From Flavobacteriaceae bacterium (GTDB lineage Bacteria; Bacteroidota; Bacteroidia; Flavobacteriales; Flavobacteriaceae), in assembly GCA_030683815.1 (NCBI GenBank), contig JAUXPJ010000018.1:55410-119409 (forward strand): 64,000 nt of DNA. The letters are read 5' to 3'. The notes under the pieces were generated by a model that ran no database searches, had not been told where the DNA came from, and saw only the letters and a program-made list of their open reading frames with translations. Position 1 is the stretch's first letter. Each line of letters opens with the position of its first letter. The position numbers were made by a program, and so were the translations under genes. Shown piece by piece: positions 43,246 through 50,426 of the stretch.

Positions 43246-43980
43246 TTATTTCTTAAGGGTTCTCATAAAATGAACAATCAACCAAATATCTTCATCTGAT
43301 AATTTTTTAGTAAATGAAGGCATATCGGCTCTACCGACTTTGGTTTTGTAAAATAATTCGCCATCCGTTTGAGATTGAAAAACAACGGAAGAAAAATCGC
43401 CTAAATCACCTTTCATGCTTTTAGCTTTTGCCCCATCACCTAAACCTTTAGAGCCATGGCAAGCTTTACAATGTAATGAATAGAGTTCTTTTCCAATTGC
43501 AATATTTTCTTTGTTATCAGCTGTTGGATTCTTTAGGTTTTTGTCCTTTGTAGGAACAACCCAATTGGAAGTGTTGACAATGGTTTTAGTTTCTTCTACA
43601 ACTACTGCTGCTTCTTTTTTAGTTTCTACAGCTTTTTCTACAATTTTCTCAACTACAACTTCTTTTTTAACAAGCTCTTCCGTTTTGATTTCAGGTTTTT
43701 TCTCTGTTGTGGTTTTTATAACTTCTTTTTCAATACTTTTAGTTACAACAGGGGATTTTGTTACAGGTTTAGCAATTTCTTCTTTCTGAACTTGTTTAAC
43801 TTCTTCTTTAATGTTTTCCAGCTCGTCTTTTTCTGTGAGAATAGCTGTAGTATCAACTCCATTTGATTTTACTATTACACTATCAATAGTGGTTGATGAT
43901 TCTTCTTGTTTTTCCTTTGAACCACAGCTTTGAATGACCATTACAAAAAAGATAAGTCCAAAAATTAGTACTTTGTTCAT
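43246..43980 (-). CDS. Monohaem class I c-type cytochrome lipoprotein with long Lys/Glu/Val/Thr-rich tether
   Basis: Lipobox VIQSC, about 110 aa of low-complexity linker, C-terminal domain with CKACHG and distal MPSF Met; paralogue of 44096-44491. Confidence 0.85.
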   Translation of the reverse strand: MNKVLIFGLIFFVMVIQSCGSKEKQEESSTTIDSVIVKSNGVDTTAILTEKDELENIKEEVKQVQKEEIAKPVTKSPVVTKSIEKEVIKTTTEKKPEIKTEELVKKEVVVEKIVEKAVETKKEAAVVVEETKTIVNTSNWVVPTKDKNLKNPTADNKENIAIGKELYSLHCKACHGSKGLGDGAKAKSMKGDLGDFSSVVFQSQTDGELFYKTKVGRADMPSFTKKLSDEDIWLIVHFMRTLKK

Positions 43981-44050
43981 GATTTTTTTGATTGAAAGAT
44001 TGTTTTCTAAGGTACAGAATTTTGATAACTATGTATTGAATTAAATTCAT

Positions 44051-44077
44051 AAAAAAACCGAAGAATCCTCCGGTTTT
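44051..44077 (-). terminator. Intrinsic terminator after the 131-aa cytochrome gene
   Basis: The minus strand reads AAAACCGGAGGATTCTTCGGTTTTTTT. Confidence 0.7.
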
Positions 44078-44095
44078 AATCAAACTTAAAATGTG

Positions 44096-44491
44096 CTATT
44101 TTTTTAAACTTCTCATGTAGTGGACGGTGAGCCAAATCTCTTCATCGTTTAATTTTTTAGCAAATGAAGGCATATCGGCTCTGCCTACTTTTGTTTTGTA
44201 GAATAATTCACCATCTGTTTGGGTGTGAAAATCTGCAGAAGAGAAATCACCTAAATCACCTTTCATACTTTTTGCTTTAGTACCATCGCCTAAACCTTTT
44301 GCTCCGTGGCAAGATTTACAATGTAGGTTGTAAAGTGTTTTTGCTTCATTCAGATTTTCTTTAGAGGCTTCTACAGGGTTTTTAGCTTTTTTATCTTTTT
44401 CAGGCACAACCCATTTGTCTTGGTTAACTGTAAAAGAAACCAATGTTATTGTAAAAACTGCTGCCATCAAAATAATTCCAAATTGTTTCAT
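44096..44491 (-). CDS. Monohaem class I c-type cytochrome (signal-anchored or periplasmic)
   Basis: 131 aa; N-terminal hydrophobic segment, CKSCHG haem motif, conserved GELFYKTKVGRADMPSF. Confidence 0.85.
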   Translation of the reverse strand: MKQFGIILMAAVFTITLVSFTVNQDKWVVPEKDKKAKNPVEASKENLNEAKTLYNLHCKSCHGAKGLGDGTKAKSMKGDLGDFSSADFHTQTDGELFYKTKVGRADMPSFAKKLNDEEIWLTVHYMRSLKK

Positions 44492-44516
44492 ATGTTTATA
44501 TTTATTGATTATTAAT

Positions 44517-44542
44517 TGGCGTCCGTCAGCTGACGGACGCCA
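44517..44542. promoter_or_regulatory. 26-nt perfect GC-rich palindrome TGGCGTCCGTCAGCTGACGGACGCCA
   Basis: Perfect self-complement, 25 nt upstream of the start codon of the 131-aa cytochrome gene and downstream of the 281-aa gene. Confidence 0.6.
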
Positions 44543-44657
44543 GTTTGATTTAAATTTCTTTATTATTGATTACTCCACTAAATTTTATTTGTTTTTGTGT
44601 TCAGTGATTGCTTCGCAATTGTATTTTGCAAACATAGCTATTTCATAATTTTCTTTT

Positions 44658-45503
44658 TTAAGATTTACTGATTTTCTTTAAATTTATTATTAAATATAAA
44701 AAAATTCCCAGAATTCCCAATAAAATTAAGTTAGGAAATATCAGAAAGAATTTTGGTGTTTTATTAACTGGAGACCACATGGTGCGTTTGTCAAAAGTTG
44801 ATAAGTCAGTCCCTTTTATTCCAAAATCTGCGTTCATCAATGCTCTTACTGTTCCATATTCATCATGTTCTTCTAACACTACTTCAAAGATTAAATTACC
44901 ATCAAAACTGTGAAAATCTTCTTCAATCGGAACACTAATTTCGCCAGCTTCATCCGTATAATATGTGCCGTCACCCACACCCAATCCCTTAATCAATCGT
45001 CTAACCTGAACTTTTAATCCTTCTTCAGCAATTGGGTTACCTTGGTTGTCTTTTAAAAGAGCAGTAATTAGTTTACCGTCATCATTTAGAGTTAATTCAG
45101 CGAAAAGATTTACATCTTTAAAATAGAGAGACTCTGTTGTATCTTCAAATTTTAAATGATTGGTTGTTCTGAGTTCAATGGTGTTTTCAGCTTCTATAAT
45201 TCCTTTAGGAAAAATATATATTGCTACTCCATGCATATCAGTCATACCTTTACCAAGAAGCGTCTCTACATCTCCAATTTTATAAATTTCAAAAGGGATA
45301 TTTTTAGCTTCTTCCCATCCATCTTTACCTTTAAAACTGGTAATTATTTTGATAAAAGAATCTCCGTCAACAATCTTATTATATGTTAAAGAAATACTTA
45401 AACTTTGTTTTTCTTCTTGAGCATTGCTGTTAAATGCGCTAAGAACAAAAGTCATCACCAATAAGATGGATACAAACGATTTTATTTTCTGTATTGTTTT
45501 CAT
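44658..45503 (-). CDS. Exported hypothetical protein with two beta-sandwich-like repeats and a C-terminal TM anchor
   Basis: Signal peptide ending SNAQ, two similar segments (GKGMTDMHGVAIYIFPKG and YYTDEAGEISVPIEED), C-terminal FFLIFPNLILLGILGIFLYLII helix; 6 nt downstream of the NrfD-like gene. Confidence 0.5.
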   Translation of the reverse strand: MKTIQKIKSFVSILLVMTFVLSAFNSNAQEEKQSLSISLTYNKIVDGDSFIKIITSFKGKDGWEEAKNIPFEIYKIGDVETLLGKGMTDMHGVAIYIFPKGIIEAENTIELRTTNHLKFEDTTESLYFKDVNLFAELTLNDDGKLITALLKDNQGNPIAEEGLKVQVRRLIKGLGVGDGTYYTDEAGEISVPIEEDFHSFDGNLIFEVVLEEHDEYGTVRALMNADFGIKGTDLSTFDKRTMWSPVNKTPKFFLIFPNLILLGILGIFLYLIINLKKISKS

Positions 45504-45509
45504 AATCTT

Positions 45510-46820
45510 TTAGTTTTGATCGTTTGCTGATTCAGTAATACCTCTTTCATCTAAGGTGCGTTGTATTGGAATTACCGGAATAAAACGCATTAAAAAAGTG
45601 ATAATTAAAAGTGCCATAGCTAAAGTAGCTCCTGTTATTAACCATTCATGGATTGATGGAACGTAATGATGCCAACTTTCTGGAACTCCTTGCATAGGGA
45701 GAAAAGGATGTAACATTGAAGGCGTAACTATTACATAACGTTTTGCCCAAGAAGTTACCACTACTAATACTGCGATGATAAACATCGGTAATGGTTTTCT
45801 CATTTTCCTGAACATCAGCAAAGTAGATGGTATAATTAATCCACCAACAGTTACAAACCAAAACATCCAAGAAAAGTGTCCAAAGAACATTTCCATAAGG
45901 TGATCTGCTTCTAATTGTGTTGTTTTAAACGCAGGAATTAGGTATTCATTGATATTAAAATACAGGTAAACTAAACAAGAGAATACCAATAATCGACCCA
46001 TTTTATCGAAGTGTTTTTCGGTGATATAATCGTGCATATTGTAAAATTTTCTAACTATATAAACCGTTGCTATCAAAGCACCGGTACCTGCAACAAATGC
46101 TCCTGCAATAAAGTACGGACCAAAATTAGAACTGTCCCAACCAATGCGATAGGTGGTTGAAAATAACCAAGCATCAATGGTCTGTAATTGTAAAGCCAAA
46201 GGTATCATTGTAATCGCTAAAACCTGAATTGATTTTTGGTGAATCTTAATTTGTTGTTCAGTTCCTTTCCAATTAATGGCTAAAATTCCGTACAGTTTTC
46301 TTAAAAATGGTTTATCGTGATTTAACTTTTTAAGGATAGCAAAATCTGGAATACTTGGAATATAAAGTAATAAAACACTAAAAGTTAAATAAATCATTAT
46401 TATCAATACATCCCACGTAATAGGTGATTGTAATCTTGGATGTAAAAATAAGTTAGGGATTCTATCTGGCCTTCCCATATCTAAAATAATGGTAACACCA
46501 GCCATTGCTATAGAAGCTACCGCTACTATTTCAGCAATTCTAACAAGCGATGTACGCCATTTTTTTTTGGTCAATCTTAGTATAGAAGCTGTAAGGGCTC
46601 CCACAAAACTAGTAGCCACAAAAAATACGAAGTTAGAAATATAAACACCCCACAATGCATAATCGCGTAGGTTAGTTACTTCCATACCTCTCATAATTTG
46701 ATCTATATAAGCTATGATACCCGCAACGGTTACCATACACAATATTGCTATCCAAATAATTCCAATTCTACTGAATTGTTTTGGAGTTAAATCATTGACT
46801 ATTTTGTTATATGTACTCAT
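45510..46820 (-). CDS. NrfD/PsrC-family polytopic membrane protein (quinone-interacting subunit)
   Basis: 436 aa with about 10 TM helices, size and topology of polysulfide reductase NrfD-type subunits; starts 2 nt after the FeS gene stop. Confidence 0.8.
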   Translation of the reverse strand: MSTYNKIVNDLTPKQFSRIGIIWIAILCMVTVAGIIAYIDQIMRGMEVTNLRDYALWGVYISNFVFFVATSFVGALTASILRLTKKKWRTSLVRIAEIVAVASIAMAGVTIILDMGRPDRIPNLFLHPRLQSPITWDVLIIMIYLTFSVLLLYIPSIPDFAILKKLNHDKPFLRKLYGILAINWKGTEQQIKIHQKSIQVLAITMIPLALQLQTIDAWLFSTTYRIGWDSSNFGPYFIAGAFVAGTGALIATVYIVRKFYNMHDYITEKHFDKMGRLLVFSCLVYLYFNINEYLIPAFKTTQLEADHLMEMFFGHFSWMFWFVTVGGLIIPSTLLMFRKMRKPLPMFIIAVLVVVTSWAKRYVIVTPSMLHPFLPMQGVPESWHHYVPSIHEWLITGATLAMALLIITFLMRFIPVIPIQRTLDERGITESANDQN

Positions 46821-46822
46821 AA

Positions 46823-47773
46823 TTATTTAGTTTCAGTATTAGATGATGAAGTGTATTTTACTTGATCATAACTAAAGTCGGCTTCATCAAAATCAACCAA
46901 ACGATCTACAGGAGGTAAATAATACACACTGGGTGATGTTCCTAAACCTTCTAACAATCTATAGCCAGCTTTATCTTTAATCAGTTTACTAAATTTCACA
47001 GTTTCATCTCCATTTGTTACGGTGTCTTCATAAATGTCTCCAAAATAGAAAACTCCTTGAGGACAAGCAGTAACGCAATGTGGTAATTCACCTTTTGCGG
47101 TTGCATGAGGACAAAAATCACACTTATCTACCGTTCCAACTTGGCTTGGTAAACCGCCAAAGTCTGGGGTGTATTCATATCCTTCTTCTAGTTGAGGTTG
47201 TTTAGGATCGCCCCAATTAAATACGCGAACTGAATATGGACAAGCAGCCATACAGAAACGACATCCTATACAACGTTCATTGTCAATTAAAACGATACCA
47301 TCACGACGCTTAAAAGTAGCATCAACCGGACAAACCGTCACACATGGAGGCTTATCACAATGTTGACAAAGTACTGGCTGCCAATATGGTGAAGTTTGGT
47401 TTGTATTCTGCATTTTATATACTTTCAACCAAGCGTTAGGTGTGGTAATATGATGTTCTTTATTACAAGAGTCAACACACTTTAATGCATTTTTACATTT
47501 CGCCAAGTCAATTACCATTACAAATTTTCGACCTGGAAAACCTTCACGAACCTTATATTCAGCAGAATGACTTGCGTGATTTACTTTTTGAATAGCATTT
47601 GAATCAACTTCAACTACTTTTCCGTCTTGCGTTAAAACTTTAACTTTTTCTCCTTCTTGAGCTGTAGCATCTGCCAATTTAACCGCAATAGCTCCGCCTA
47701 CTACGCCCATTAAGCCAAGTTTTAAGCTTTTATCAAGAAAACTTCTTCTTGAATTTACCTCTTTTTTATCCAT
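46823..47773 (-). CDS. Tat-exported 4Fe-4S ferredoxin-type subunit (NrfC/PsrB/HybA-like)
   Basis: Twin-arginine signal SRRSFLDKSLKLGLMGVVGG and four Cys clusters (CKNALKCVDSC, CQHCDKPPCVTVCP, CIGCRFCMAACP, CDFCPH...CVTACP). Confidence 0.9.
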   Translation of the reverse strand: MDKKEVNSRRSFLDKSLKLGLMGVVGGAIAVKLADATAQEGEKVKVLTQDGKVVEVDSNAIQKVNHASHSAEYKVREGFPGRKFVMVIDLAKCKNALKCVDSCNKEHHITTPNAWLKVYKMQNTNQTSPYWQPVLCQHCDKPPCVTVCPVDATFKRRDGIVLIDNERCIGCRFCMAACPYSVRVFNWGDPKQPQLEEGYEYTPDFGGLPSQVGTVDKCDFCPHATAKGELPHCVTACPQGVFYFGDIYEDTVTNGDETVKFSKLIKDKAGYRLLEGLGTSPSVYYLPPVDRLVDFDEADFSYDQVKYTSSSNTETK

Positions 47774-47882: not shown

Positions 47883-48734
47883 TTAGAAATTATATCTACG
47901 CGTGATGGTAAACCCTAACATAAAATCACCTTTAAAGAAATCATTTTGGTTACTGAATTGACTTCTTTGATTTAAGATTCCTTTATAATTAGTGAAATAT
48001 AGTTGAAATGCGTGTGCACTGGTTGCAAACTCCACTCCTAAACTTACACCCGGTTTCGGAGTTCCCTGTTCAAACTCGGTAATCGGTTGTGTGTAATCAA
48101 ACAAGACGGCTGTTTGCGGGCTGATTTTGTAACGGCCCCCGGCAGATACTGCAATCAAATCATTTTCTTGTGTTGGCAAAACCAGATTGTAATGCGCTGC
48201 ACTTGGAGCTACTTGCAGGGATAAATTGGCGTTCACCCTTCTTGAAATAATCAATTGATTAAAATAAGAATAACGATCTTGTACATTTCTGAAATTGTCT
48301 TTGGTTCTGGCATCAACAGCAATGTTTCCATAATAAGAAACATTTACCGGAATGGATCCTGAACGGGTTTGTTTCAATAATGCCACTTTAGCGCTGAAAT
48401 CCTGCATACGGCTGTCTTTGGTGGTTGCTGCCCCTAAAGTGATGTTATCCGTAAAGCTATAGGCCAATCCTATGCGAATGTTGGTTGGCGCCCATAATCC
48501 TAAAAGGTCGTTGGTGCCTCCATCTACCAATCCGAAACGGTGCTGCATGATTACTTCCAAGGTTCCTTTGACAAAGGTAACGTTGGTGTTGTTATCAATA
48601 ATCTGTGAGCTCTCGTAAGCCGCGCGCTCCGGTTTGTCTTTTGGTTTTTCGGTGGTGGTTACTTCATCTTCTTGCGCAAAGGCAAAAACCGGAAGAAAAA
48701 CAAACACCCAAAAAAGTATTTTAATATTTTTCAT
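47883..48734 (-). CDS. Outer-membrane beta-barrel protein (possibly DUF5777-like)
   Basis: Signal peptide MKNIKILFWVFVFLPVFAFAQ, alternating beta-strand pattern, C-terminal aromatic residue (TITRRYNF). Start placed at ATG 48734. Confidence 0.6.
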   Translation of the reverse strand: MKNIKILFWVFVFLPVFAFAQEDEVTTTEKPKDKPERAAYESSQIIDNNTNVTFVKGTLEVIMQHRFGLVDGGTNDLLGLWAPTNIRIGLAYSFTDNITLGAATTKDSRMQDFSAKVALLKQTRSGSIPVNVSYYGNIAVDARTKDNFRNVQDRYSYFNQLIISRRVNANLSLQVAPSAAHYNLVLPTQENDLIAVSAGGRYKISPQTAVLFDYTQPITEFEQGTPKPGVSLGVEFATSAHAFQLYFTNYKGILNQRSQFSNQNDFFKGDFMLGFTITRRYNF

Positions 48735-48753
48735 AATTTTCTGTTTTTTAGTG

Positions 48754-49143
48754 CTATTCGTATTTGGCGTCTGTTTCAATCCATAATTTCATCGTGGCAA
48801 GTTCAGTAGCATTCAGCGTAAATCCCACATTCATGTGACCGCTGGTAGCGCTTCCCGGAGCGAATGTATATAATTTACTGCCTGAAGGATTGTTTTTCAC
48901 TACGTAATTACCAATTAAACCATTGTAGGCTGTTTGCGTATTTCTCATATCAGGAGAGGTGGAACCTCCGTGACAAGTTGTGCAACGCGATAACATCGGA
49001 GCGATATTCGCCTTAAAGGTTACCACCGTTCCCGGAGGAAGCTCTACCGGCTCTTCGAAAACCGGTATTGCTTCGTCATAGTAGCACGAGCGTAAAGACA
49101 ACCCAATGATACCGACGATGAATATTTGAAATATTTTTTTCAT
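48754..49143 (-). CDS. Small haem-binding lipoprotein (single CxxCH, PSCyt1-like context)
   Basis: 129 aa; Cys20 after a hydrophobic leader; FKANIAPMLSRCTTCHGG and C-terminal LATMKLWIETDA resemble the Planctomycete-cytochrome-C-type domain. Confidence 0.6.
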   Translation of the reverse strand: MKKIFQIFIVGIIGLSLRSCYYDEAIPVFEEPVELPPGTVVTFKANIAPMLSRCTTCHGGSTSPDMRNTQTAYNGLIGNYVVKNNPSGSKLYTFAPGSATSGHMNVGFTLNATELATMKLWIETDAKYE

Positions 49144-49179
49144 TTTCTTATCTGGTTTTAAGTTAGTTATGCGTTTTAT

Positions 49180-49220
49180 AAAAAACGTCCGGATTCAGTG
49201 AATAAAACTGAACGTTTTTT
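49180..49220 (-). terminator. Terminator-like hairpin between the hexahaem gene and the rest of the cluster
   Basis: AAAAAACG-TCCGGA-TTCAGT-GAATAAA-ACTGAA-CGTTTTTT: an 8-bp outer and a 6-bp inner stem, U-run on either strand. Confidence 0.5.
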
Positions 49221-49235
49221 AACCTAAAACATTAA

Positions 49236-50426
49236 TTATGGTAGTAATTTAAGATCTGCAACGGTGTTTTTCATCAACGCCTCGGTATATTTTGGGTTGT
49301 GTAAACCGTAAGAATGATCTTGATACACAAATCTCCAGTTCCAATATCCTTTAGTTATTCTAACATCAGCAGCAATTGTAGAATCGTATTGTCTGGTTGC
49401 TATAACCGTTAACTGATTGGCAGAAAAAGCAGCATCCGTAAATACATTAGGTGCCGTGAATGGTTTTGTACCTGTATAGTTAGCAATTCTGAAATCAGCA
49501 GGACGAAGTCTTACCATTTCTTCTGCTAATTCTAACATTAAGTTTTTAATTTTGGTTTGTCCGCCATTAATGTTATAGTTTACAACACCGGCTCCGGTAT
49601 GGCAGGTTTTGCAATTGTCTAAAACAGGAACAAACGTATGATTTCCTTTACCGTCTTTTGCTTTACCCATATGGCATTGAACACAAGAAGCACCTGTTCT
49701 ATGAACGGCAGTTCCTTTAGCTGGATAAGCAACAGTACCGGCAACCTCTGATGCGAAAATACCTTCTAACATGGCAGACTGAACGCCATAGTGAGGTCCG
49801 GTAGATGAAGACAATGCGATTTTACCAATATTAGTTCCCGAAGTAGCCGGAGCTAAACCGGTTACATCCGTTCTTCTTGGTTGATGACAATGTACACAAG
49901 CGTTGCTATTGTCTTTGTAATCAATAATTACATCAGCACCAGCTGCAGTTTTTTGATTTAATTTGTAGAAACCAGCACTTCTTAAGGCCGCATCTTTTCC
50001 GCTGATAGCCAACGCTGCGGAAGCATGTCCACCGGAGTGGCAAGTTGTACAATTGAAAATCGTTTGTGTAGTTGCCGTAGTGGTAAAAGTGGTGGTAATA
50101 TCTCCCGTTGCATAGGATGCTTTATACCCTTCATCTGAGTGGCAATTCAAACAAGAATTGTTACGACCAGGAAGTGCTGCACCTAAGGCGTGATCAGAAA
50201 CTGCATAAGTAGCAGGTTGTACTACTTTGAAATCTACATTGTGGCAAGATAAACATACGTTACCGCCATCAATACCATTAGTACCATTGGTACCATTGAT
50301 ACCATTTACGCCTGTTGCTCCTTGTGCTCCGGCAGGTCCGGGAATTGGATCATCACTAGTACATTGTACAAGGGTTAAACTTATCGCTATCACAAATAAG
50401 CCCTTCAAAAAATTCAATTTTTCCAT
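49236..50426 (-). CDS. Hexahaem c-type cytochrome lipoprotein with collagen-like Gly-X-Y N-terminal stalk
   Basis: Six CxxCH motifs (CLSCH, CLNCH, CTTCH, CVHCH, CVQCH, CKTCH); leader ending LVQC; GPAGAQGATGVNGINGTNGTNGIDG directly after the Cys. Confidence 0.85.
   Translation of the reverse strand: MEKLNFLKGLFVIAISLTLVQCTSDDPIPGPAGAQGATGVNGINGTNGTNGIDGGNVCLSCHNVDFKVVQPATYAVSDHALGAALPGRNNSCLNCHSDEGYKASYATGDITTTFTTTATTQTIFNCTTCHSGGHASAALAISGKDAALRSAGFYKLNQKTAAGADVIIDYKDNSNACVHCHQPRRTDVTGLAPATSGTNIGKIALSSSTGPHYGVQSAMLEGIFASEVAGTVAYPAKGTAVHRTGASCVQCHMGKAKDGKGNHTFVPVLDNCKTCHTGAGVVNYNINGGQTKIKNLMLELAEEMVRLRPADFRIANYTGTKPFTAPNVFTDAAFSANQLTVIATRQYDSTIAADVRITKGYWNWRFVYQDHSYGLHNPKYTEALMKNTVADLKLLP

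Follow-up and report, generated by a model that had tools for sequence, protein, structure and literature searches.

A 64,000-nucleotide window of a Flavobacteriaceae genome (contig JAUXPJ010000018.1) encodes at 49236..50426, on the minus strand, a six-haem cytochrome of 396 amino acids (P0001), recognized from the listing of open reading frames (ORFs), its translation and its homologues. We propose, with moderate confidence, that this hexahaem protein is a lipoprotein cytochrome of the NrfA/OcwA superfamily, carried on a collagen-type stalk and probably trimeric, and that it sits at the outer-membrane end of a quinol-linked electron-transfer chain. Its parts follow one another as MEKLNFLKGLFVIAISLTLVQ-C22-TSDDPIP-GPA GAQ GAT GVN GIN GTN GTN GID G(54)-GNV-C58LSCH. 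An earlier note on this DNA, made from the letters alone, had described this architecture, and translation finds each part where the note had placed it. What it said of a Gly-X-Y stalk, of an export signal and of an NrfA-type C terminus held up in our analysis; its suggestions of NrfA-type catalysis and of frequent repeat slippage did not. Coordinates below are those of the window, and features lie on its minus strand unless stated otherwise.

Residues 1-21 form a predicted hydrophobic signal peptide ahead of a putative lipobox cysteine, Cys22 (LVQ-C; 50361..50426, read from the sequence), with Gln at position -1. This cysteine is invariant in alignment A1 and at least 90% conserved in alignment A3, and distant relatives carry canonical lipoboxes (..SC, ..AC, ..GC) at the aligned position. 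Six CxxCH motifs follow, starting at residues 58, 92, 126, 177, 248, and 272.

The Gly-X-Y run between the lipid anchor and the first haem

Residues 30-54 (50265..50339) translate as (Gly-X-Y)8 plus a ninth in-phase Gly, uninterrupted as in collagen-like proteins (PF01391). A word-indexed search returned 157 homologues of the hexahaem protein, and in all 120 of the 120 listed, a lipobox Cys is followed by a Gly-X-Y run and then by the first CxxCH. When 1.84 billion cluster representatives were searched exhaustively with HMMER, the family grew to 693 representatives (E<=1e-3), 323 of them at E<=1e-10; lipobox Cys, (GXY)n, and CxxCH occur in that order in nearly all of the full-length 50%-cluster representatives. 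In the full-length set (n=244; 5-6 haems, 320-480 amino acids), an uninterrupted in-phase Gly run precedes haem 1 in 242 members, down to ~28% identity. The run holds 3 to 16 in-phase Gly, with a mode of 7-9. An upstream Cys lies no more than 10 residues ahead of the first Gly in 227 members, and the last Gly stands exactly 4 residues ahead of the first haem Cys in 147/242 (61%); since both gaps are short, the run spans the whole interval from anchor to haem 1. The earlier note had said that a segment absent from all orthologues would be incidental; instead, it is conserved, and variable in length, between anchor Cys and haem 1. The Gly-X-Y run is the hallmark of a large family and not incidental low complexity, and its presence at one place in 242/244 homologues far exceeds what chance would give. 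Because Gly recurs unbroken at every third position despite this divergence, we take the segment to be a structural element.

In composition, the X position of the family stalks is mostly Pro, Thr, Val, Ala, or Ile (Pro, 21%), and the Y position is mostly Asp (42%), Asn, or Ala (Pro, 5%). In longer members, stretches such as GPQGPQGEPGEDG and KGE/KGD pairs look like canonical bacterial collagen, and Pfam Collagen (PF01391) is matched at E<=0.01 by 64/124 representatives, with a best E of 5.9e-9. Stalk length changes across the family come as whole triplets. Our literature searches found no paper on collagen-like stalks of multihaem cytochromes.

Judging from sequence, a collagen-type triple helix is most likely the form of this segment. 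A collagen triple helix rises by ~0.29 nm per residue; thus, the 24-25 residues would make a stalk ~7 nm long. Only a 7-residue acidic linker and the (Gly-X-Y)8-9 run separate Cys22 from haem 1. In the arrangement that we envisage, three chains would wind the run into a short triple helix, clamped by three lipid anchors at one end and by an oligomerizing haem domain at the other. This would give a cytochrome trimer standing at a constant distance from the membrane, its three haem-1 groups atop the rod. Oligomerization in this superfamily runs through C-terminal helices, and HAO and ONR are built on trimers (Soares et al. 2022, PMC9250108).

Several points weigh against a triple helix. P0001 scores 15.2 bits with Pfam Collagen, under the 27.2 gathering cut-off, and in the AlphaFold 2 (AF2) monomer model the stalk has a predicted local distance difference test score (pLDDT) of 45-56, which is low confidence. 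The eight triplets contain one Pro, with mostly Asn, Asp, or Ala at Y; a run so poor in imino acids would be far too unstable for a lone triple helix, and our reading assumes clamping at both ends. A possible, if somewhat doubtful, alternative is that the run forms no triple helix but acts in a single chain as an extended (polyproline-II-like) or flexible tether, the protein being a monomer, or a dimer like NrfA and OcwA. The low Pfam score and low imino-acid content of the run would suit such a tether, as would its shortness (3-9 triplets in most members), the dominance of Asp and Asn at Y, and the swapping of the stalk for an unrelated leucine-rich repeat module in some relatives; moreover, both NrfA and OcwA form dimers (Costa et al. 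2019, PMC6703420). Yet a disordered tether gives no reason for a Gly kept at every third position in 242/244 diverged proteins, nor for indels that come solely as whole triplets. Neither does it explain why no hinge separates the run from the first haem motif, or why the longer members are canonical collagen-like sequences.

At the DNA level, the GxN triplets are encoded by a near-repeat at 50273..50306 (no strand assigned), for which Tandem Repeats Finder gives a period of 9 nt, 3.8 copies, and 92% matches, in line with the 9-nt repeat that the earlier note had seen. The accompanying suggestion that the repeat could vary in length by slippage fared less well. Close relatives do differ by one or more triplets, and the count varies widely family-wide. 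However, when repeat number was compared within four 90%-identity clusters (~45 full-length members), one +1-triplet variant appeared (P0309 versus P0104), and all other members had equal lengths. Slippage is therefore rare at short range, and stalk length is stable on short timescales, unlike that of a slippage-driven phase-variable tract. That the run is functionless low complexity left by replication slippage of the 9-nt tandem near-repeat is highly improbable, and we reject it: despite differing codons and X/Y residues, the run sits at the same position family-wide, orthologues conserve it (242/244), and its repeat number is stable within the 90%-identity clusters.

An NrfA/OcwA-type haem domain

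The haem domain (residues ~56-396) is a pruned member of the NrfA/ONR/OcwA superfamily. Pfam PF02335 (Cytochrom_C552) matches residues 241-389 (E 8.6e-12; 45.2 bits against a gathering cut-off of 24.1). The AF2 monomer model, built with an 84-sequence alignment, has a pLDDT of 84.8 and a predicted template-modelling (TM) score, pTM, of 0.81; its C-terminal helical module (helices 286-307, 352-370, and 378-393; 49248..49571) ranges from pLDDT 90 to 99, with the three long helices above 95. The best PDB matches in Foldseek were OcwA (6I5B; E 1.4e-4, TM 0.44), several NrfA structures (2j7a/1oah among them), and OmhA (6QVM), with a TM of only 0.44-0.45 for OcwA and OmhA. Searched against PDB sequences, the family profile found OcwA at 2.7e-15, ONR (8RV0) at 4.5e-11, and NrfA (3UBR) at 2.9e-10, the OcwA match covering haems 2-3, 5-6, and the C-terminal helices. 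A single-sequence phmmer search of PDB sequences gave weak matches only, so a profile search was required. Finally, hhalign of the family to the genome's own NrfA gave 94.6%.

The earlier note had proposed a fold search of the haem domain against catalytic multihaem reductases, and Foldseek, profile, and hhalign comparisons all point to the NrfA/ONR/OcwA group. It had also likened the C terminus to the ENS.GFHNP motif of NrfA and octahaem reductases, and this likeness proved correct. The window protein reads DHSYGLHNPKY (49287-49319) in the C-terminal module; the family motif 'leDkSkGvHNPkYA' aligns with 'aENSDGFHNPEQA', and the counterparts are 'GVHN' in OcwA, 'GFHNP' in ONR, and 'SFHAP' in the genome's own NrfA. 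Proteins of the NrfA/ONR/OcwA type form one homologous group in which haem modules have been added and pruned (PMC9250108). By the ONR and OcwA alignments, haems 2-6 and the C-terminal helices match the NrfA pentahaem core, and haem 1 is an added N-terminal haem.

Haem 1 (CLSCH, residues 58-62; 50241..50255), the extra one relative to the NrfA core, begins 4 residues past the last stalk Gly. In profile alignments, haem 2 (CLNCH, residues 92-96; 50139..50153) takes the position of the NrfA/ONR catalytic CxxCK and of the open haem 5 of OcwA, aligning to TCIQCK in ONR 8rv0 and to RCLKCHSAEAY in OcwA 6i5b. Haem 3 (CTTCH, residues 126-130; 50037..50051) is followed by the conserved His134, and haem 4 (CVHCH) by Q182-P-R184 (49875..49898), aligned in place of the NrfA/ONR 'CHVEY'. 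Further along, GPHYG (residues 210-214; 49785..49799) contains an invariant His212, and residue 213 is His or Tyr family-wide (53% and 35%). Haem 5 (CVQCHM) and haem 6 (CKTCH), with His263 between them (49599..49685), correspond to NrfA haems 4 and 5 by PF02335 and hhalign.

Does this ancestry imply nitrite reduction? A true NrfA is encoded on a different contig of the genome (C20:106576-108680, minus strand; 498 amino acids); it reads CWTCK, RGH, CAQCHVEYYF, SQHPDYE, and SFHAP and adjoins an NrfH-like tetrahaem protein (200 amino acids). The standard nitrite ammonification enzyme is therefore already in the organism. We checked the NrfA signature residues directly on this protein. The hexahaem family has CxxCH where NrfA has CxxCK, and all six motifs are CxxCH. 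The RGH with the catalytic Arg becomes S-x-H79 (S-D-H79 in the window protein), and the CHVEY with the catalytic Tyr becomes CHQ-x-R, where Q182 and R184 are at least 95% conserved (CHQPR184 in the window protein). At the QHP position stands T/V/A-Y234-P, and no residue between 213 and 241 is His. The NCBIfam NrfA scores are 22.9 bits versus 595 for NF008339 and 15 bits versus 692.5 for TIGR03152. What the protein retains, by sequence, is the NrfA-type bis-His haems 2-5 and the C-terminal helices (PF02335; His79, 242, 263, and 376 conserved). A true NrfA was thus rejected, given the replaced catalytic residues and the real NrfA-NrfH elsewhere in the genome. By its residues, the hexahaem protein does not belong among nitrite reductases of the NrfA type, and the hint that it is catalytic is weaker than the earlier note supposed. 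Several homologues are named 'ammonia-forming cytochrome c nitrite reductase subunit c552' in databases; such names are probably over-annotation, which would matter for nrfA-based surveys of nitrate ammonification.

For six haems, the family has six conserved non-motif His (79, 134, 212, 242, 263, and 376). Four of them map to NrfA distal ligands, and His134 maps to the His after the equivalent haem in OcwA and ONR. His212, in the invariant GPH[H/Y]G, has no NrfA counterpart. In OcwA, a non-ligating His-His motif lies above open haems (PMC6703420). From the alignments, it is about equally probable that His212 is the sixth ligand closing haem 2 or that it is the counterpart of this distal motif; an OcwA-like open haem 2, marked by GPH[H/Y]G and CHQxR, is possible. 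A search of PDB sequences with a P0159 fragment did not cover the segment aligning OcwA HH 380/381 with GPHHG.

Predicted export signal, gene cluster, and proposed electron transfer

The residues following the lipidated cysteine, T-S-D-D-P at +2..+6 (Cys = +1; 50346..50360), match the published lipoprotein export signal (LES) of Bacteroidota. This signal was defined experimentally as C-X-K-(D/E)2-X, in which a polar residue may replace Lys; in F. johnsoniae it is SDDFE (Lauber et al. 2016, PMC5080379). With a polar residue and then two acidic ones at +3 to +5, C-T-S-D-D fits it, as the earlier note had claimed, the acidic pair standing at +4/+5. The C-Y-Y-D-E that the note had seen on the neighbouring 129-amino-acid cytochrome is also there and likewise fits. 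Asp or Glu occupies both +4 and +5 in 19/137 (14%) of the genome's lipoproteins predicted by regular expression. Four of the 19 are c-type cytochromes with six, eight, two, and four haems, which hints at a set of surface cytochromes. The octahaem (C-K-D-D-D-P; C3:12927-14120), dihaem (C-T-S-D-D-P-I; C5:31712-32563), and tetrahaem (C-S-P-E-E; C11:113061-113771) proteins are all without a Gly-X-Y run. Proteins with 12 haems (contig C4) and 7 haems (contig C2) also occur in the genome.

The hexahaem gene is the first of a minus-strand cluster. It is followed by the conserved neighbour gene for the 129-amino-acid monohaem lipoprotein (LRSC-YYDE, one CxxCH; 48754..49143) and by a gene for a DUF5777 outer-membrane beta-barrel (47883..48779, likely start ATG 48734; Pfam PF19089, E 5e-78). 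Next come, by family matches, an NrfC/DsrO-like 4Fe-4S protein with a Tat-type SRRSFL (46823-47773) and an NrfD/DsrP-like membrane quinol subunit (45510-46820). Three further genes (43246..45503) complete the cluster: one for a 281-amino-acid protein of unknown family, which is secreted and anchored at its C terminus, and two for class I cytochromes c of 131 and 244 amino acids. The two cytochromes (43246-44491) are paralogous, and the 244-amino-acid copy has a long N-terminal extension before its haem domain. After the hexahaem stop codon, RNA folding finds a terminator-like hairpin with a U-run (49180..49220, within 49165-49240; -15.4 kcal/mol, z = -3.1, 0/200 shuffles as good). This strong hairpin suggests that gene 1 yields more transcript than the remaining genes of the cluster.

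Related loci were compared with the closer alignment A2. The hexahaem cytochrome, the 129-amino-acid-type cytochrome, and DUF5777 form a triad in every Bacteroidota locus long enough to show it, including those of Maribacter arenosus, Mariniflexile aquimaris, Lutibacter metagenome-assembled genomes (MAGs), a crustal-fluid Flavobacteriaceae MAG, Bacteroidales, and Prolixibacteraceae. The inner-membrane module is NrfCD in Flavobacteriaceae and Bacteroidales and a cytochrome b with NapC-type cytochromes in Prolixibacteraceae. Because this module varies, the triad is the functional unit and the quinol-coupling module is exchangeable. In our proposal, the hexahaem protein, as the product of the first and probably most highly expressed gene of the operon, would end the quinol-linked chain at the outer membrane. 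The C-T-S-D-D signal would display it on the cell surface in this Flavobacteriaceae clade, as a diderm counterpart of OcwA and OmhA, surface cytochromes of Gram-positive bacteria, where it may exchange electrons with an extracellular or bulky partner.

The barrel gene is single copy in the genome. An AF2 model of DUF5777 (13 sequences) has 12 strands and a pLDDT of 73.7, and by TM score its best Foldseek matches are the 12-stranded FapF, NanC, and the EstA autotransporter barrel. The 13 orthologues share three invariant His (H65, H181, and H241, counted from ATG 48734) and many invariant polar residues. Our literature searches found no paper describing DUF5777. An MtrB-like sheath was considered and rejected, as the barrel has only 12 strands.

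Other points tell against our proposal. The Gln at -1 of the lipobox is non-canonical, being neither Gly, Ala, nor Ser. At least one acidic residue occurs at +2..+6 in 218/227 (96%) of the family members, but the full LES acidic pair is found in only 34/227 (15%), and surface display is therefore not family-wide. Going by its model, the 12-stranded barrel cannot sheathe a cytochrome as MtrB does, and no route for electrons across the outer membrane is evident. A rigid 7 nm stalk would put haem 1 past tunnelling distance from the membrane, so that a partner must bridge the gap. Finally, an NrfCD module with an NrfA-like protein also suits a purely periplasmic reductase.

This last point leads to the main rival, in itself rather unlikely in our estimate: a periplasmic reductase or oxidase of the Nrf type, with a five-coordinate, substrate-binding haem 2, OcwA-like in being open, that is fed by NrfCD via the class I cytochromes. 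DUF5777 would then be a substrate-specific channel like NanC or Tsx, and the stalk would do no more than hold the enzyme in place, below the outer membrane or above the inner one. The gene set does parallel enterobacterial NrfABCD (an NrfA-like protein with NrfC and NrfD), and some of the barrel's nearest neighbours by fold are small solute channels. Within the protein, the alignment of haem 2 with a haem that is catalytic in NrfA/ONR and open in OcwA (haem 5), the likeness of the invariant GPH[H/Y]G to the non-ligating OcwA motif, and the near invariance of Q182, R184, and Q216 where NrfA has active-site residues are all in its favour, and OcwA reduces nitrite and hydroxylamine in vitro (PMC6703420). 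However, the count of exactly six conserved non-motif His for six haems is that of an electron-transfer protein with bis-His ligation throughout, and neither CxxCK nor the Arg of RGH, the Tyr of CHVEY, or the His of QHP has been kept. Both lipoproteins carry an LES-type motif, and the Prolixibacteraceae triad goes with cytochrome b and NapC-type modules typical of extracellular electron transfer. In addition, OcwA and OmhA, closest to the hexahaem protein in structure, are cytochromes of the cell surface.

A bolder version of the outer-membrane proposal, which we likewise think rather unlikely, makes three adjacent lipid anchors nucleate the triple helix that trimerizes an NrfA/OcwA-type surface cytochrome. 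Together with the monohaem lipoprotein and the 12-stranded barrel, this cytochrome would form a new type of conduit, unrelated to MtrCAB and the Geobacter porin-cytochrome complexes, and stalk length (3-16 triplets) would set its working distance. By analogy with autotransporters or RcsF-OmpA linkers, the thin rod, or a Pro-rich tether of the partner, might even thread the 12-stranded barrel.

Relation to known systems and variants of the family

Surface multihaem cytochromes drive iron and manganese cycling, corrosion, and bioelectrochemical systems, and those that are structurally understood come from few Proteobacteria and Firmicutes. If our proposal is true, Bacteroidota would have an outer-membrane electron-transfer module of their own. 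It would also bring a new design principle, in which a lipid-anchored collagen rod sets the height of a redox protein as well as its oligomeric state. Since some carriers are in culture (Mariniflexile aquimaris CCUG 60529, Maribacter arenosus, and Lutibacter sp. HS1-25), the proposal is directly testable.

Closest by structure and by profile stand two surface multihaem cytochromes of Gram-positive metal reducers, OcwA from Thermincola potens (6I5B) and OmhA from Carboxydothermus ferrireducens (6QVM). With them, the hexahaem protein shares the NrfA-like C-terminal haem module and helices and the order of the haem core, at a TM score of only 0.44-0.45. It also shares CxxCH in place of CxxCK at the NrfA catalytic haem position, the His-His/Tyr motif in the same inter-haem segment, and a proposed cell-surface role. 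OcwA and OmhA have nine or eleven haems and a cytochrome c554-like N-terminal module, whereas the hexahaem protein has six, one of them N-terminal to the core, and is missing that module. Moreover, it is a diderm lipoprotein with a collagen-like stalk, and identity is only ~16%. The haem core (haems 2-6), the C-terminal G-x-H-N-P ligand motif, and PF02335 are held in common with NrfA (2J7A and 1GU6) and ONR, and the genetic association with NrfC/NrfD-type proteins with NrfA; the extra haem 1, the lipid anchor, and the stalk set the hexahaem protein apart from NrfA.

For the stalk, the closest parallels are Scl1/Scl2 of Streptococcus, BclA of Bacillus, and C1q and the collectins of eukaryotes, which likewise have an N-terminal anchor, an uninterrupted Gly-X-Y rod, and a globular C-terminal head that possibly nucleates the trimer. 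Rods of the Scl/BclA type have 17 to >79 triplets, compared with 8-9 in the hexahaem protein, which further differs from these proteins in having a lipidated Cys right before the rod, a multihaem head, mostly Asp or Asn at Y, and a triple helix that is predicted. The porin-cytochrome conduits (Shewanella MtrCAB and Geobacter OmaB/OmbB/OmcB) resemble the locus in having a barrel gene beside lipoprotein cytochromes, downstream of a quinol-oxidizing module. Yet MtrB has 26 strands and DUF5777 has 12, below the ~20-26 of a large sheath; the locus has no periplasmic decahaem to thread the barrel, and the cytochrome folds are unrelated. The LES surface lipoproteins of Bacteroidota have the same polar and two acidic residues at +3 to +5 (PMC5080379). 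Their cargo is glycan-binding or hydrolytic, in contrast to the haem protein found here, which has Gln at -1 and whose export is predicted.

The same haem module also occurs behind other N-terminal parts. Among 401 evenly sampled Bacteroidota genomes from 180 genera, the module was found at E<=1e-25 in 59 genomes and 43 genera. Roughly half of the matches begin at about profile position 50, in ORFs of 660-1081 amino acids, which are therefore without a stalk. In many Bacteroidota relatives, the hexahaem module forms the C terminus of such 660- to 1081-amino-acid proteins. P0185 has leucine-rich repeats between lipobox and haem module in place of the stalk, and relatives from KSB1 and Calditrichaceae (854-870 amino acids, eight to nine CxxCH) are stalkless. 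Because leucine-rich repeat and stalkless architectures carry the same haem module, the collagen-like stalk is one of several interchangeable N-terminal spacers.

Finally, the related loci differ in some details. In Flavobacteriaceae, the spacing from anchor Cys to first haem Cys is often equal in the hexahaem and small cytochromes (35/35, 35/35, 34/34, and 32/32; 36/34 in the window), and in the Bacteroidales loci it is unequal (15-18 versus 31). These 13 compared loci are a small, phylogenetically dependent sample, in which matched spacing may reflect co-adjusted tether heights or only shared ancestry. Loci of the Lutibacter type carry an extra lipoprotein of ~416 amino acids (C-T-H-D-D-A-P) between the hexahaem gene and the small cytochrome (L012:8263-9513, L013:1707-2957, L016:8112-9350, and L010:3310-4563). 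This lipoprotein has an ethylbenzene-dehydrogenase/DOMON-type haem-b domain (PF09459, E 2.5e-29). In the last of these loci, L010, the pair of small cytochrome and barrel is duplicated in tandem.

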